From a virus: a stretch of 64,000 nt of DNA. A model generated the notes under the pieces. The model did not search any database and was not told the DNA's origin. It was given only the letters and a program-made list of their open reading frames with translations. The stretch lies in the IMG/VR virus record IMGVR_UViG_3300040786_000066; one strand, written 5' to 3'. Made by a program: the position numbers and the translations under genes. This document shows positions 5,709 to 36,322 of this stretch, in pieces. Positions within the stretch are counted from its first letter, which is position 1, and every line of letters begins with the position of its first letter.

Positions 5709-6093
5709 AAGCTTGTTTGACTGGGTTAGTTACTAAAGTACCAATCCCTGGTCGGCGAAGGGAACTGAGGTTAGAAAAACTGCGAAGCAGCAGGCTGAAT
5801 GCAATGTGATGAAGTACAGTAATCATGTTAGTAAGTCTCTCCCGAGTAGATTGAGTATAACGATTTACAATATTAGCCCCGGATATAGGTTGATTACCTT
5901 ACCCTGTATCAGATAGACACGTTTCATCGTCGGGCAATAACAAAAGTCCAGAGTGCACATAGGTATATGAAAATTAAGAACCTACCTGCATTAGATTTAT
6001 TAGAGAATCGTCTGGCAACAATAAGTCCTGAGTGGATTGCATGATACGTCATACAACCTCGAGCTCTTCATAAGTGGAGAGCTTTACAGGCTT
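5709..6093 (+). ncRNA. candidate large (~385 nt) structured RNA, unassigned
   Basis: No credible ORF. Closing helix AAGCTTGT(5709-16)/ACAGGCTT(6086-93). Internal stems GATATAGG/CCTGTATC, AGCTCTTCA/TGGAGAGCT and CTGC-GAA-GCAG. Confidence 0.5.
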
Positions 6094-6708: not shown

Positions 6709-6791
6709 GGGTAAGTACTCTAGAAAAGGCGTTATTGTTTGTCGCGGTATACAGTCGGCATACAAGATGGGTTCGATTCCCTACCTATCCA
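6709..6791 (+). ncRNA. tRNA-like RNA with Ala-type acceptor (G3:U70, A73)
   Basis: GGGTAAG/CCTATCC acceptor (one mismatch), TTCGATT T-loop, and a long hairpin instead of an anticodon arm. Confidence 0.45.
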
Positions 6792-6792
6792 C

Positions 6793-7062
6793 AAGATTGT
6801 TCATTGACGTATTATGAGTTTTGCAAGACGGGAGTTCGACTCTCCCAACTCCACAAATCGAAGACCGTGTATGTTGTCGATGGTGTAGCTAGCCGATATA
6901 CAAATAGCCGAACTTATGGGGTTGCCTGGTTTTGATTGCAATACACAAGTTTTACTGAGAATAGTCCCAACTATAACTCCAAAAGTTATACAACTTTTAG
7001 TGCAGCTGATTTAGAATTAGCAGCCTAGACGAAACTTGGGGAGCGTCAATCCCCTTATTTTT
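6793..7062 (+). ncRNA. ssrA: circularly permuted (two-piece) tmRNA
   Basis: Acceptor piece first (GACGGGAG-TTCGACT-CTCCC-AACTCC-A, 6827-6853), then a spacer, then the 5' piece GGGGTTGCCTGGTTTTGA at 6918 (G3:U70). P2 TTGCAA/TTGCAA. Tag frame ends ...FSAADLELAA-TAG (7028). Inter-piece pairing TTGACG(6804-09)/CGTCAA(7044-49). Confidence 0.88.
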
Positions 7063-7459: not shown

Positions 7460-8770
7460 AATAACGGCTTGAGCGAAACGTGGGCCGTGGTTCAAAGAAT
7501 ATACAACACTAGTCCTGGAATTCCTGGCAAGCCTATGAAGATAGGAACTTGGTAGAGGATAGAGGCACGTAATCCTTCATATTGCATCGGTACAAATAAA
7601 CAAAACCGAGCCGCACAACACCGTGATTCTTTTAGATAACGGAATATGATTGACTACAACCGGAGCACGGATTCAAACTAACTGTACTGTGTCGAACAGG
7701 ATGAAATCGATTGATGCTAGCCGTAAGGCAACTAACATCTTGTTGCATTTAAAAGGGACAAGAAATGATAGGGATTCTGCAGGATCCAGCTATTGAATAA
7801 GGGTAAGAATAATATCCCCTTAGAACCTCGCTGACACCAGCCAAGTCAGGAGAACAAATCGGGTGGCATCCCTCTAAGCATAAGGAGAACAACAATGCGC
7901 ATTAGCATAAGGTGTACAACAATGCAAGTACTGTCGGCCAGCCATGTCAGCTTGGACCCAAAGTTGGAGTTGATAACTTTGCCGGCAAGTACTTTAACCA
8001 TGCTGAAAAGCAATTGCAAGGAGACTATTAGGTACGTCTTCCCAGAGTAACGTGTGCCAACACCCTGGGTATCTTAGGTCAAGGATGCAATACTTTTCAT
8101 AAAGTCTATAATCTGCGATAACAGAATGAATACATCAACCGCGCAACAAGGCGAGTTTAGTTTTTAGTATGTGAGCGGTAGACACAACTACACACAACAA
8201 ACAAAGATTGCTACTTAAGCTAGTTTATGAACAGCGACTCTGACTCGGGCATCTAATGTACCGGCTAACCTTACAGAGAAAAGGTGTAATCCCTTGCCAG
8301 TATGATTTTAGGCAAATGCAAACTTCGTCAATGTTCCTTAGCGTTCGGGTATTAAGTATAAGATAGCATAAGCCTAAAAGTTGTTGGCATTAGGGCATCA
8401 AGGGATTGATGTGATGAGCTGTAACGGAACTCAGCAGGCAGGTTCGATTCCTGTTAGCCTCACTATTTTAACAACATCCAACGCTCAAAGGAATTAAGAG
8501 GGCAGGCGTTATAGTGACCCGCCGAGAATGAATGGTCACTGAATTTCTAAGTAGTAATGGTCATCTTAAGATACCTGAGTAGAGTGAGTAGTAAGAGTGG
8601 TGCCTATATGGTATTTCTGAAATGAACGTAGTAGCTCAAAAGGCAGATGGACTCAATAGAGAAGATTATTATTGAATTTGCGTGTTCGTTCAGTCCAGTT
8701 TGCATAGCAGGATCGCGCACGTTAAAACTAAGGTAGGAGCAGTCATCAAGTATGGTGATTGTCTCCCTTT
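7460..8770 (+). ncRNA. giant structured RNA, GOLLD-like, with an embedded tRNA-like element (~8393-8462)
   Basis: About 1.3 kb with no ORF of 60 aa or more on either strand. Many helices, e.g. AAGTACTGTCGGC/GCCGGCAAGTACTT, AAAGTT/AACTTT, CCCAG/CTGGG, AGTGACC/GGTCACT, TGGACT/AGTCCA. Ends in a terminator-like hairpin. The class assignment is from recall only. Confidence 0.55.
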
Positions 8771-19710: not shown

Positions 19711-19806
19711 CGGGAAACCACAAGATCAAGCTAGCCTATAAACGGGGATGCGTGGGAGGATGATAAATAAACACTGTCTGATAAGGGTTCGAATCCCTTT
19801 TCCCGT
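19711..19806 (+). ncRNA. degenerate tRNA-like RNA
   Basis: CGGGAAA/TTTCCCG acceptor and AAGGG-TTCGAAT-CCCTT T-arm; no canonical D or anticodon arm. Confidence 0.5.
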
Positions 19807-20339
19807 TATTTTAACAACTAAATATATGGCACAAGAAAAGAACGTTGCCTGCATTTGTCCTAGTATTATGATCTACAACGAGTGGGTCAGAGAAAACGCA
19901 GTAAAGGAGAGCAATATATCTGGGTCTATAATGAAGACAAAATCAGAGGACTACGCTTCCATAGACTAGTTAAGTTATTTAAATATTGGACAATAAAAGA
20001 TATAGATAGAATATTGAGGTTTATTATAATAGACCCTCAAGATGTCGAGATTCAATAGTAATCTCATATAATTTAATAAGAACAATATGAAAGCGTATCA
20101 AATAAACATCGCCCCTAGAACTGGAGTCGGTATGGGATTTGTGACTGTTGGAGAAAACGAGAACCACGCTCTTGCAGAGTTCTCAAAGTCTCTTAGGGAT
20201 TCCATCAAGATAATCAACGCCAAAATAGCGTGCGGACCTGAATGTAATATATCAATACACGAAAGCCAAAAGAGCGCAATGTAGAGATCCTTAGAACACT
20301 TAGAAAACCAGGTAGGCTTGCTTTCCAAAAAACGACTTC

Positions 20340-22428: not shown

Positions 22429-23936
22429 AATAATTATGGAAGTAAAGCTAATTAAAGTAGAAGGCTGTGTAGTCGGCTGGTCTATGGAAGGAGAAAACCT
22501 TGAAGAAATGAAAAACTAGGGGCTATCAGAGACATCCAATTCTTTGGTTTTGAAGATACAGAAATAGTGTACGCAGGTAGAAAAGGCGGTGACTATGTAA
22601 CAGATCCTGGAGTGTTGTCTTGGAAACAAAAAAAGCACGACACTAGCTCCCCAAAAAAATAATGAAAAGCTAGAAGCTACAATAACAGTAGATAACTTAG
22701 TGTCGACCATGAAAACATCAATGCCATCAGAGAAGATCCTAAGAGAACGAATGAAATATTTCGTGCTGCAGGATTTTAGAGGGTATATTGTATACTAGGG
22801 AGGCTAGTACCAGGCAAACAACTTGTCTTTAAAAATATCACTTATGTGGAGATTGGATGGATAGGCCAGAAAAGAATAAAGACCAGAGAACAAACCTACA
22901 TGGAGCTGATGGTAGAAATGATGGAAGAATTCATCAAAGAACTCACTTAATAAATTGACTTATGGAAAAAGAAGTAAATGTTAGAACATACACATACGCT
23001 CAACTAGACTGTAAATATGATGCACTATGTTTAAAAGATAAAAATACAGTGCTTAGAGGAGCTTTAGAATACATGCAGCAGTACAACGGTAGGACTATAA
23101 AACATGCATTTTCATGGCTATGGGCTATGAGGATTGCGTAGGGAAGGAGAATACATAAAAGTAATAGACCATGGGTAACATACAAGAACTGGAAAACAGC
23201 TGGCTGAGGCAAAAGCTGAAGAAAAGAGAAAAGAGCTTCAAACCTTGACAGAAAACCTCATCTCTAAATACCAAGGAAAGCTTACGGGAGTCACAGTTTC
23301 GAAAGAAAAACAGATCAGCGTACGCTTCAGCTGTGTTTTATGAAAAGTTCTGGGTTACAGGCAATACGATAACAGTATTGAAATGGAACATATCCTTTTG
23401 CAGAGCAGGAAGAAATTACAAATTCTCAAGTGATAAGCTGTCTTTGACAGAAACAAAACTGAGGTATCCTCACAGGAGAACGGCTATAGTTTTGAGCACA
23501 ATTTAATAAGTTCAGGCGCCTATGGTAGGGACAAAGAAATGTCCGTAAACAAATTCATGCAACTTTGGGAGTACGGATATTTTGTGGTACAAGAACTAGA
23601 CAACGTATACACAAAACTGTGGGACAGCCGTGGGACTTGACTAGAATGGGCACAGCAACCGATGAACTAAAGTTAGATATAGCTATAAAAGCCACTGGTA
23701 TTGATGTTATAGATATAACAGAAGACTACAAGGTATTCAACGTACTCAAGTATTGTCAGTTACCGTTCTTTCAAGAACAGAAGTATCTGCCTAGAATATT
23801 CGCAGTAAAAATACTCGAATATCAGATATCCAAAATGAAGGAGGATATGGCACATCCATTCTCTACACGCACAGAACACACACGTGGAGAAATTAAAATT
23901 CTAGAAGATTTTATAAAACAATTTAACTCTTACATC

Positions 23937-24842
23937 ATGCAAGTAAAAACGATAAAGAAAATAATCAGTAAAAAAATGATCGACTGGTTAGAAACTATTC
24001 CCAACGAAAAGTTGAGATCTGACGTCAAGAAAAATATCCTCGTATCAGGAGGTTGTATCACATCATTGTTTCAAGGATTACCAGTTAACGACTACGACGT
24101 ATACATTCAGGACATGGATGTTCTGATCAGACTGGCTCAGCATTATTACCCAGGAACAACTACCACAGGTGTTGATAAAGTGCTTGACGGAAGAAAACGT
24201 GAGGACTATCTTAACAATATACAGAGCTCTTTTGAAATTGACGATAACGAATCTGAAGAAGCAGTTCGCTACAAAACACTTAAACTAGATCAAGTCAAAT
24301 TGAACATAAGTTCGATAGGAATGAAAAAAGAGCTGATTGAAGGTAAAAAATACCAGGTTGCTTTCTTTTCCCAAAATGCTATCTCCCTTACAGAAGATTT
24401 GCAGATTGTATTAAGATTCAGTGGTAACGTTACTCAAATTCACAAAACTTTCGATTTCGTGCATGCCACTAACTATTTCACCTTTGAGGAAGGATTAGTT
24501 ACAAACGTAGCAGCACTAGAAAGCATATTGACAAAGTCTTTGAGATACCAGGGATCCTTATATCCTCTTACCTCTGTAATACGTATGAAGAAATTCATAC
24601 AACGTGGTTGGACCGTAAACGCGGGAGAAATCCTTAAGATGTTGTTCCAAGTGTCTGAGTTAGACCTAAAAAACATAGAGGTGCTAGAAGAGCAGCTTAT
24701 AGGAGTTGACGTAGCTTATTTTTCGCTACTGATAACAGTGCTAAGAGATACTGAAGGAAAGCTTACCGCTCATCATTTATCTGAATTGATAGACAAGGTA
24801 TTCAATGAATACGAAGAGCCGGTTGACGAAGAAGTTAAATAA
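23937..24842 (+). CDS. phage nucleotidyltransferase (Pol-beta superfamily, poly(A) polymerase/CCA-enzyme-like head)
   Basis: ILVSGGCITSL...NDYDVY and FDFVHATNYF...R..KF..RGW motifs. The ORF track starts at 23565; the likely start is MQVKT. Confidence 0.75.
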   Translation: MQVKTIKKIISKKMIDWLETIPNEKLRSDVKKNILVSGGCITSLFQGLPVNDYDVYIQDMDVLIRLAQHYYPGTTTTGVDKVLDGRKREDYLNNIQSSFEIDDNESEEAVRYKTLKLDQVKLNISSIGMKKELIEGKKYQVAFFSQNAISLTEDLQIVLRFSGNVTQIHKTFDFVHATNYFTFEEGLVTNVAALESILTKSLRYQGSLYPLTSVIRMKKFIQRGWTVNAGEILKMLFQVSELDLKNIEVLEEQLIGVDVAYFSLLITVLRDTEGKLTAHHLSELIDKVFNEYEEPVDEEVK

Positions 24843-31489: not shown

Positions 31490-31713
31490 AGGTGGTAAAT
31501 ATCCGCTAGTACAAACAAATTCACATAAGTAACCGGTTAAACTGAGGCCCCTTGAGGGATAGTGTAAGACTGTAGACAAGCCTCTGTGAAAGCAAGCTTC
31601 TTTAGTTATCGGATTAAACTTTTGATACGGGTCATGCAGCCCCGATACAAGACTGGAAGAAACCAGAGCTATTAAAAATTTATTTGATAAGTTCCCTCAC
31701 ATGAGGGCTTTGG

Positions 31714-31893
31714 GAGGTGATGTAACTGGCAGGCATGCCTGCGGTAATGCAGCAGGTGGTAAGGGCAATAATGAAAGTCATCAGGAATCAGGCCTGATTT
31801 TTAAGGTGATGGACAAGAATGACCCAAAAGTGAAAGCGGCAATTGTACATTACCCGTGAAAGCTCCGTGCAGGTTCGAGTCCTGCTCACCCCA
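31714..31893 (+). ncRNA. expanded tRNA-like RNA (180 nt)
   Basis: GAGGTGA/TCACCCC acceptor, GCAGG-TTCGAGT-CCTGC T-arm, A73, and internal helix GGTAATG/CATTACC. Confidence 0.7.
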
Positions 31894-32151
31894 CAAACTA
31901 CACATTGAAAAACAAACACAGTTATGATACATTAAACAGCAAGAGAAGTAGGGGCACTGAAAATTTTGTGATATAGGCATCATAATGCACTATCAAGATA
32001 ACCGGAAGCATAGATGAGGAAGGTTAAGTGCCAGGTTTGTTGAGTAAGATAAGCTCTTGTTACGTTGCTCCGAGTAGGACAGTACGTACTTGAAGGACTA
32101 AGTGAACCTTGTAGAGTAATATCCCTATCTTGAAGGATGGGTGGTTTATAA

Positions 32152-32351
32152 GGCCGGATGGCGTAGAGGCATACGCTAAGGTTATAGGCCTAGAATGGAT
32201 TATCAAAAGCCTATCTGTAAGACAAGTCAGGTAAATAAGCGGCAAGATAGGATAGTCCAGCAAGTTCTGTGAAAATAATAACTATTATCCCTGTAAAGGT
32301 GCTGACTAACACAGAATATAATTCATGCAGGTTCGAATCCTGCTCCGGCCA
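32152..32351 (+). tRNA. tRNA-like gene with a ~130-nt structured variable-region domain (identity uncertain)
   Basis: GGCCGGA/TCCGGCC acceptor, class II-like D arm GCG-TAGAGGCATA-CGC, weak anticodon arm (loop TTATAGG), T-arm GCAGG-TTCGAAT-CCTGC and A73. Confidence 0.75.
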
Positions 32352-32383
32352 CAAACAGTATTTTAATTAAACAACTAACAACC

Positions 32384-33271
32384 ATGCTTGAGATAAAAAA
32401 TCAAAAGACCAAAACCACGGCATGTAGAGAAAACGGCAGAAGCGCAGACTTTACAAGCGGTAATTTCATCTTAGGCTGCTCCCACAAAAAAGGAGATACT
32501 TATGATAATCCCTGCTCTTATTGCTATGTAGCAAGATTCGGCAGACAAAAATTGTACGTCAATACTAACACAGATGAGTTGTTGGCAGAGTGCGACAAAG
32601 CCATACAAGACCTGCCTTCCCTAGAGTACCTAACCAAGTAGATGAGAAATACTACTACGTTGACATCTCTTGTGATACAGATATTAATCTGCATTGGAAC
32701 GACTATGATTGATTTATGTGTTTGATTATTTCAAGAAGCATCCCAAGCTAGCAGCTACTTTTGCTACAAAATGGGTGAATACAAAACTGCTGGACTATGT
32801 TCCTGAAAACAAAATCAGAGTAAGAATGAGCTTGATGCCTGAGAAAATGAGAGCTATACTTGAAAACGGTACCAGTCCTATAATAAAAGAGTTCAGTTCC
32901 TGGAGAAGCTTTTCCAAGCAGGATACTCTACGCACATCAATTTCAGTCCAATTATTTACCACGACAAAAAACTGAGCGGGTACAAAGAACTCTTCAACAT
33001 CATTAACAACGAAGTATCAGAGGAGTTTAAAAACAAGCCGGTCTCGAATGTATTTTCCTTACTCACAATGCTAATCTTCACAAAATAAATTTGGAAAAGG
33101 CCTTTAAAGCAAGAAGAAATACTTTGGACACTAGAGAACCAAGAACAGAAAATCAGTCAGTATGGAGGCTCAAACCTGCGGTACAATCAACGTGTAAAGC
33201 CAGCTTTAATTAGAGCTTTTACAAAGTCGGTAAACCAAGACCTCAACATACCTATTAGGTATATATTTTAA
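32384..33271 (+). CDS. spore photoproduct lyase-like radical SAM protein (indel-split)
   Basis: GC...CSYCY, FATKWVN, IRVRMSLMP and E.GTSPI motifs. Confidence 0.75.
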
Positions 33272-33453
33272 AGAAGATCCAAGCAGCAAGGATGTGCAAA
33301 TAAAACTGCAGATATGGCCCTCTACATGTGGGCTCGTATAAAAGGACGCAGGCTTTTGGCTAGCAGGAATAGACTGCTTTTTTAGTTTAAATAAATATTC
33401 AATTCAAAGTAAAGCTATATGGCTTGTAAGGTCATTTCAATAAGAAAATGTAA

Positions 33454-36040: not shown

Positions 36041-36179
36041 GGAGGCATAGCTGTTAAGATTGCATTCTAACACAGTAAGTGGGTCGCCGATGAGCTGATA
36101 TTACTGCACAACATGCGCGCTAAAGATGTAAGTGATCAGTTATGTACGCGGCAAGGAGGTTCGATTCCTCCTGTCTCTA
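36041..36179 (+). ncRNA. expanded tRNA-like RNA (139 nt)
   Basis: GGAGGCA/TGTCTCT acceptor, GGAGG-TTCGATT-CCTCC T-arm, A73, and two long hairpins replacing the D and anticodon arms. Confidence 0.72.
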
Positions 36180-36322
36180 CAAACAATTAAATAAGAAACA
36201 ATGAGAGAAAATGAAAAGAAAAGCAAGGTCATGCTCTTAAATTATCAGAGCTTGTAGTAGGTGAATGGTATGGTTGTAGCAGTTGGGAATCAAACATAAA
36301 AGCAAAATACAGTATTCATTCA

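Follow-up and report, generated by a model that had tools for sequence, protein, structure and literature searches.

What is an RNA that begins and ends like a transfer RNA (tRNA), yet has a long interior, doing in a phage genome? The question is raised by IMG/VR virus record IMGVR_UViG_3300040786_000066, a stretch of 64,000 nucleotides (the window throughout), in which an earlier note, made from the letters alone, had described positions 31714-31893 as a tRNA-framed structured RNA with the topology of transfer-messenger RNA (tmRNA) but no tag. The window, a long-read contig with many indels, belongs to a large phage sampled in an ice metagenome. The nearest matches of its proteins are crAss-like DNA polymerases and one Tenacibaculum phage protein, which points to a host probably among the Bacteroidota. 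Neither ARAGORN nor Rfam at its gathering score reported a match in the window. Comparison with homologs indicates that the element is very probably a selected mimic of tRNA-Leu, one with a complete cloverleaf, an elaborate variable arm and no anticodon.

Folded singly, the window RNA is no better than its shuffles (z +0.4), so homologs were needed and the evidence for its structure is comparative. Four full-length homologs were found in three other phage lineages, three of them (L099, L073 and L207) by pattern scans of IMG/VR and the fourth (L248, a close sister of L099) through a neighbouring gene, giving a family of five full-length members in four lineages. In a structure model over the five, 95.9% of cells are paired and 17 of 34 pairs show two-sided changes; no shuffle out of 500 reaches this, and slid controls give 35–48%. 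Related sequences can beat shuffles; the tRNA stems, however, were not fitted to one sequence. Covariation across the five members thus bears out a tRNA-framed structured RNA, and on this comparison the locus is a real, conserved phage RNA gene (Table 1).

The homologs also set the register: with a 7-bp acceptor, U8 G9 and a 3-bp D stem, the gene starts at 31711, and the acceptor register starting at 31714 was dropped. The 3' limit given by the earlier note stands, 31893 being the discriminator A73. The 3' acceptor strand (31886-92) is followed by A-CA; the window gene thus measures 183 nt up to A73, after which CCA is incompletely encoded. Its long interior is no long-read artefact, because short-read contigs of two other studies cover the RNA with few differences, one spanning 31751-31896 with 8 other letters and 1 gap, the second 31705-31771 with 2 other letters and no gap. 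Two mismatches lie in the window acceptor, T1xC72 and A5xA68, and an under-called G run could account for the former.

Judged by these alignments, the frame is a complete class II tRNA-Leu cloverleaf with the elbow intact and the anticodon lost. As in tRNA-Leu (RF00005), it comprises a 7-bp acceptor, U8 G9, a D arm with a 3-bp stem and an 11-nt loop (A14, A15, G18G19, A20a and G21), a T arm, a U44.G47-type variable-arm base and mostly A73. Two-sided changes occur at all 7 acceptor pairs and 4 of 5 T-stem pairs. Both the D stem (ATG/CAT in one state, GTG/CAC in another) and the anticodon-position stem covary, and in L207 the variable-arm base has changed from G-C to A-U and from U.G to C.A. The leucyl-tRNA synthetase (LeuRS) identity positions A14, A15:U48, G18G19, A20a and U54:A58 are present in all five members, as is the determinant U8:A14; A73 is present in four, including the window copy, and L207 has G73. 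Published LeuRS determinants are A73, A15-U48, G18G19, A20a and U54:A58, the anticodon arm and variable-arm sequence being dispensable, and E. coli tRNA-Leu variants lacking both the anticodon arm and the variable arm are still charged (PMC9976931). Among ordinary tRNAs, the family covariance model places tRNA-Leu at the top (53.6 and 45.9 bits).

What separates the family from tRNA-Leu is the loop that would read codons and the length of the variable region. Loops at the anticodon position range from 4 to 12 nt with unrelated sequences, and that of the window copy is 9 nt long (31743-31751), with neither U33 nor a conserved triplet. The 7-nt loop with U33, a Leu triplet and a purine at 37 that decoding calls for is missing from the family, which makes decoding appear very unlikely. 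The variable region is 111–138 nt compared with 10–20 nt in tRNA-Leu. ARAGORN misses these RNAs, and the Rfam tRNA model scores the members at 13.5–14.7 bits, below its gathering score.

The insert in the variable arm shows selection on its letters, since its junction motifs, identical at 27–32 of 33 positions between lineages, are far better conserved than the acceptor and T stems (2–15 of 24). As modelled, the variable arm is a three-way junction with one variable-length arm and one conserved hairpin. The helix of arm 1 has one G-C to G.U change and is otherwise invariant, hence unproven by covariation; beyond it lies a structured region of variable length (52–75 nt), predicted to form one hairpin in the window but a junction of two hairpins in L099, L248 and L207. 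In arm 2, the stem 31836-39/31854-57 has four two-sided changes (0 of 500 shuffles), and four members, each folded on its own, are predicted to form the same hairpin; in L073, aligned by eye only, it is looser. Two 2-bp GNRA mini-hairpins considered for the 3' insert were dropped in favour of this one long hairpin, as they showed no two-sided changes and were matched by 374 of 500 shuffles. A likeness to RNase P or cyclic di-GMP riboswitch motifs had no Rfam support and was also dropped.

The tip of arm 2 is palindromic in all five members, reading UGUACA in the window, L248 and L207 and UACGUA in L099 and L073, so that the apical tetraloop has the states GUAC and ACGU. L099 and L248 are near-identical, yet all four tetraloop positions differ between them and both are palindromic; because their anticodon arms are the same, the change of four letters does not compensate for the anticodon loop. 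Within one chain, neighbouring bases are unable to pair, and palindromes make up about 6% of 4-mers in the window. The family therefore shows a palindrome-to-palindrome switch in a covarying hairpin, in two states only. In the OLE and GOLLD RNAs, such a switch backs cross-chain kissing pairs seen by cryo-electron microscopy (Kretsch et al., 10.1101/2024.12.08.627333). The pattern suggests that two copies of the RNA may pair through the loop as a symmetric kissing dimer. As free duplexes, the GUAC and ACGU alleles give −2.5 kcal/mol when cross-paired vs about −6 kcal/mol when self-paired; unlike loop alleles would pair poorly with each other, and the two alleles would, if the dimer is real, give strain-specific pairing.

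A second potential partner for the apex lies in the same chain. GGTAATG and CATTACC had been taken to close the long domain, but GGTAATG lies in the anticodon loop, CATTACC (31848-54) forms the 3' flank of the apex of arm 2, open in the window copy, and GGTAA/TTACC fails in L073; the pairing is thus at most a partly conserved pseudoknot and does not close the domain. Scored against the apex segment, pairing of the loop gives p 0.003 in the window, 0.02 in L073 and a borderline 0.065 in L207, and is absent in L099 and L248; scored against the whole insert, it is significant in the window copy only (p 0.04). The best partner of the anticodon loop falls on the arm 2 apex in three of four lineages, a suggestive regularity, though noticed post hoc and with differing registers. 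A fixed-register anticodon pseudoknot was rejected, since 2 of 24 permutations reach the observed count and it fails in L073. If formed, the pseudoknot uses the kissing apex and would therefore compete with kissing; an alternative switch between the anticodon loop and the palindromic hairpin loop is a weakly supported possibility.

The letters named in the earlier note are all present, including GCAGG-CATG-CCTGC (31729-42), AATCAG/CTGATT and CATCA/TGATG. Its inner stem CATCA/TGATG is out of register, however: three substitutions in the run X3 homolog break the pairing, and GTCATC (31777-82)/GGTGAT (31805-10), read by hand, tolerates them. The GCAGG-CATG-CCTGC hairpin does duplicate the T stem in the window, where 5 of 5 positions pair; in homologs, which have other T stems, 2–3 of 5 do, and the conformational switch suggested on this basis is not conserved.

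The carriers of the gene have little in common. The L073 and L099 contigs share no detectable protein with the window (a weak negative, the window frames being broken), a gene adjoining L099 matches Cellulophaga phages only, and the terminase found close to L207 shares 54% identity with those of small Flavobacterium phages. As its carriers are unlike each other, the gene appears to move between phages. It is also replaced in one strain and cut short in two assemblies. In a sister strain of the window phage, the same leader is followed by another Leu-type tRNA-like RNA (L257 2340-2510), whose long interior is unrelated and breaks off where the contig ends. Assemblies L120 and L249 have an identical 400-nt deletion between short similar words, either a natural deletion or a shared misassembly, which takes away the 5' half of the tRNA-Leu-like RNA together with an odd tRNA and a portion of the tmRNA-like region.

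Default filters of the RNA-model search lost the true member L248, and all loci were then re-screened with nhmmer. A blastn search of four members against cultured phages returned only T-arm or D-arm fragments, and further pattern scans only chance matches or ordinary tRNA-Leu. No member was found by profile check in 60 prokaryote genome loci, picked by a pattern that would miss L207-type variants. In Cellulophaga phage phi4:1 the family model picked up tRNAs of normal size and nothing else, and in Tenacibaculum phage pT24 it had no match. Rfam has no match to the family or to its variable-arm domain or palindromic hairpin (weak matches are at chance level), and partial literature coverage yielded no paper on such RNAs.

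RNAs of this kind are known from cultured phages. Record AY543070 labels T5 RNA1 (144 nt) and RNA2 (125 nt) 'tRNA-like stable RNA with unknown functions', and T4 rnaC and rnaD are species 1 and 2 RNA. Like these, the family is phage-encoded, tRNA-framed, with an oversized interior and no clear anticodon, a resemblance of kind and not of sequence family. The D arm of T5 RNA1 is likewise of Leu type, and the family model gives this RNA 32 bits, a score that comes from the frame alone. T5 RNA1 and RNA2, however, are extended mainly at the anticodon-position arm and lack the insert motifs and the palindromic hairpin; the family and insert-hairpin profiles matched neither the T5 RNAs nor T4 rnaC and rnaD. 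The kind is known, and the family with its variable-arm domain and palindromic hairpin appears new. The structured RNAs OLE, GOLLD and ROOL have symmetric kissing loops whose sequence changes from one palindrome to another, and GOLLD and ROOL are phage-borne near tRNAs. The family has no sequence or model match to them, is far smaller, lies inside a tRNA frame and has one candidate contact; their multimers are observed, whereas the dimer proposed here is a candidate from sequence alone.

Other phages contain tRNA-like genes with altered anticodon arms. Tenacibaculum phage pT24 has two near-identical ones annotated 'tRNA-Undet' (L018 1468-1546 and 1835-1913), in which the anticodon arm is longer than usual and its loop has 3 nt; they are probable anticodon-less mimics, in an experimentally accessible cultured phage. 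A GC-rich phage tRNA-like gene (L001 about 5785-5895, minus strand), missed by ARAGORN, has an anticodon arm longer by some 40 nt.

We propose that the gene descended from a class II tRNA-Leu, is mobile among phages and encodes a stable, non-decoding RNA. Host RNase P, 3' trimming and CCA addition would likely excise and stabilise it like a tRNA. Given the retained determinants, it may bind LeuRS and perhaps be charged by it, to which we give somewhat less than an even chance; charging is doubtful for L207 (G73) and for the window copy (two acceptor mismatches). In some members, cis pairing of the anticodon loop with the apex might hide both, creating monomer and dimer alternatives, a possibility we hold more loosely. 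Tentatively, the RNA would serve as a tRNA-shaped decoy or ligand, perhaps with two heads, for some host protein that recognises the elbow or the acceptor end. The proposed targets are a tRNA-attacking defence enzyme, LeuRS or EF-Tu, with the RNA itself outside decoding. According to three reports (PMC11464382, PMC11555353, PMC12851939), anti-phage defence is commonly directed at tRNA, and tRNAs encoded by phages work against such attacks. The combination of a mimic with a self-pairing decoy is our preferred reading, though short of an even chance. Its fullest form, a leucylatable mimic toggling between a loop-capped monomer and a kissing dimer that shows two elbows and acceptor ends and acts as a two-headed decoy or regulator, we consider unlikely.

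Several points weigh against a self-pairing decoy. The published counter-defence, in these reports, uses working tRNAs and no mimics. The window acceptor has its two mismatches, and G73, as in L207, is a LeuRS anti-determinant (PMC9976931), so leucine charging is not universal across the family. Variable-arm orientation matters for LeuRS (PMC2377443), and the 110-nt domain may clash with the enzyme. No partner protein gene accompanies the RNA across its carriers, and the different RNA in the sister-strain slot, together with the 400-nt deletion, means that the RNA is dispensable or exchangeable. As for the dimer, two loop states in four lineages leave the palindrome resting on one kind of change, and the shuffle control on the apex segment alone is marginal (22/500), so we put dimerisation little above even; a kiss of 4–6 base pairs rich in AU is also weak, the free duplex giving about −6 kcal/mol.

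In the main rival reading, the tRNA frame serves solely as a natural scaffold that gives exact processing and nuclease resistance. The working part would be the conserved insert, with its invariant junction motifs, bulged-A helix, purine-rich internal loop and kissing loop, which would bind a phage or host protein or build an RNA oligomer, as in GOLLD, ROOL and OLE. That insert motifs are much more conserved than tRNA stems, that the palindrome switches as in OLE and GOLLD, that GOLLD and ROOL lie near phage tRNA islands, and that the same slot and neighbourhood host other tRNA-framed RNAs with unrelated inserts all speak for it. Yet the Leu positions (A15:U48, A20a and mostly A73) are stricter than processing alone should need, and there is one candidate intermolecular contact vs five or more in cage RNAs (10.1101/2024.12.08.627333); we regard the scaffold as less probable than not, by some distance. 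An improbable alternative is a leucine carrier off the ribosome, charged by LeuRS, safe from decoding and anticodon nucleases, and feeding a transferase or buffering the charged-tRNA pool. The retained LeuRS identity set and the charging of E. coli variants without anticodon and variable arms (PMC9976931) fit such a role, which is set back by G73 in L207, the mismatched window acceptor and a CCA that is not encoded; no transferase gene was seen beside any member, and the insert is left unexplained.

The remaining explanations are far less probable than a tRNA-Leu mimic. Splicing of the insert to leave a working tRNA would liken the family to the tRNA genes of Lak megaphages, Bacteroidota phages whose conserved inserts are called 'enigmatic introns', splicing having never been shown according to the available part of the source (PMC6784885); the insert flanks could form a normal short variable arm, and the intron mode of ARAGORN forces calls (Tyr in the window at a relaxed threshold, Asn in L099). 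The forced anticodons disagree, however, and the abnormal anticodon loop, which no two lineages share, is not part of the insert. An exhaustive single-excision test on the window copy gave 0 solutions with a 5-bp stem and a 7-nt U33/R37 loop, whereas Lak anticodons, compared by description from that partial source, are assigned after insert removal. The earlier note's statement that the insert is too short for a group I intron agrees with its 111–138 nt and with Rfam, where three members showed no P3–P7 core or RF00028 match at E up to 10, nor any group II match; we give an intron little credence. Decay of a tRNA pseudogene or an assembly artefact, suggested by the indel-rich window, the two acceptor mismatches and the lack of a single-sequence folding signal, is already largely refuted by the short-read contigs from two other studies, the 17 two-sided pairs and motifs conserved across unlike phages. 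Covariation in particular excludes a pseudogene.

Least probable of all is a tag-less tmRNA analogue in ribosome rescue with SmpB, the reading nearest to the topology first proposed. tRNA-like ends around a long interior and A73 do recall tmRNA (RF00023). In a tmRNA, however, the D loop lacks a stem, the acceptor carries G3:U70, and a long P2 stands where a tRNA has its anticodon arm. The family has a covarying D stem, an anticodon-position hairpin and an insert placed in the variable arm, and its 3:70 pairs are G-C, C-G, C-G, G-C and U-A, with G3:U70 in none of the five. No Rfam tmRNA model matched and ARAGORN called no tag frame, in agreement with the tag being absent as the earlier note had it; the phage also has a separate permuted tmRNA-like gene, read by eye (Table 1).

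For decades the annotations of T4 and T5 have listed oversized tRNA-like RNAs without an explanation, and because the standard tools, ARAGORN and Rfam, miss such RNAs, phage genomics does not see them. The present family supplies a small member of the kind (about 200 nt) with a structure backed by covariation, and the L099/L248 allele pair offers built-in natural compensatory controls. A positive outcome on dimerisation and charging would bring a tRNA-framed entry onto the short list of natural RNA homodimers, and it would suggest that phages answer tRNA-directed defence, or adjust translation, with mimics besides working tRNAs.

Table 1. Features of the tRNA-Leu-like RNA gene and its surroundings (window positions)
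Feature	Position	Strand	Remarks
Whole tRNA-Leu-like RNA gene	31711..31895	+	same parse in five members; covariation
Acceptor 5' strand	31711..31717	+	pairs with 31886-31892; 5/7 in window copy, 7/7 in homologs
D region (U8 G9, class II D arm, G26)	31718..31737	+	D stem AU -> GC; identity positions invariant in 5/5
Anticodon-position hairpin	31738..31756	+	stem CCTGC 31738-42 / GCAGG 31752-56, kept in all members
Anticodon-loop strand	31743..31749	+	candidate cis pseudoknot with 31848-31854; 7 bp in window; would compete with kissing site
Variable-arm base	31757..31759	+	pairs with 31865-31867; U48 at 31868
Insert arm 1	31760..31825	+	near-invariant motif 31760-71; helix 31763-67 with 31820-25 (bulged A)
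Insert arm 2	31829..31864	+	hairpin: 3 bp, 4x4 purine-rich internal loop, 4-5-bp stem, apex
Palindromic apex	31844..31849	+	candidate intermolecular kissing site; UGUACA in window
T arm	31869..31885	+	canonical loop U54, U55, C56, A58; perfect in window
Second tRNA-framed RNA	32152-32352	+	200 nt; perfect acceptor, different variable-arm insert
Spore photoproduct lyase (SPL) family gene	32384-33270		PF20903; directly downstream of tRNA-Leu-like RNA
Nucleotidyltransferase-like gene	23565-24842		relatives annotated 'putative tRNA nucleotidyltransferase'
Permuted (two-piece) tmRNA-like gene	about 6800-7030	+	reading frame ends LAA-stop; read by eye

The SPL gene has apparent breaks that are long-read indels, and its relatives were traced to phages without the tRNA-Leu-like RNA in the stretch examined. 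The nucleotidyltransferase-like gene is at most a tentative candidate for CCA addition; the L112 protein, 71% identical to its product, carries Pfam Gad2. The permuted tmRNA-like gene was not called by ARAGORN or Rfam, and L099 and L248 have a similar 3' tmRNA-like piece just upstream of their family member. No Bacteroidota-type promoter word TAnnTTTG occurs within 1.4 kb upstream of the tRNA-Leu-like RNA, and sigma-70 matches are near chance level.

The upstream leader contains a conserved structured RNA candidate (31520-31615, plus strand; L257 about 2150-2245), a long stem with a multi-way junction and several compensating changes in the sister strain, for which Rfam gave no match. Between it and the 5' end of the tRNA-Leu-like RNA, a small hairpin (31694-31707) is retained in the sister strain; past it, different strains carry different tRNA-like genes, and it looks like the border of a swappable cassette.

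Further tRNA-like elements are scattered through the window and its relatives. The second tRNA-framed RNA folds well (z −3.3) and receives a frame-level score only from the family model. In a scan of the window, T arms with an acceptor-like strand behind them turned up at 6830, 8438, 19783, 31869 (the tRNA-Leu-like RNA), 32327 and 36155, and tRNA-like ends with odd interiors occur at 8438, 19741-19808, 36041-36181 and 6709-6792. The close strain L123 has two tRNA-like RNAs without counterpart in the window (about 1372-1464 and 1685-1810), inserted near window position 33275, one with a palindromic loop at the anticodon position and the other with a long variable insert.
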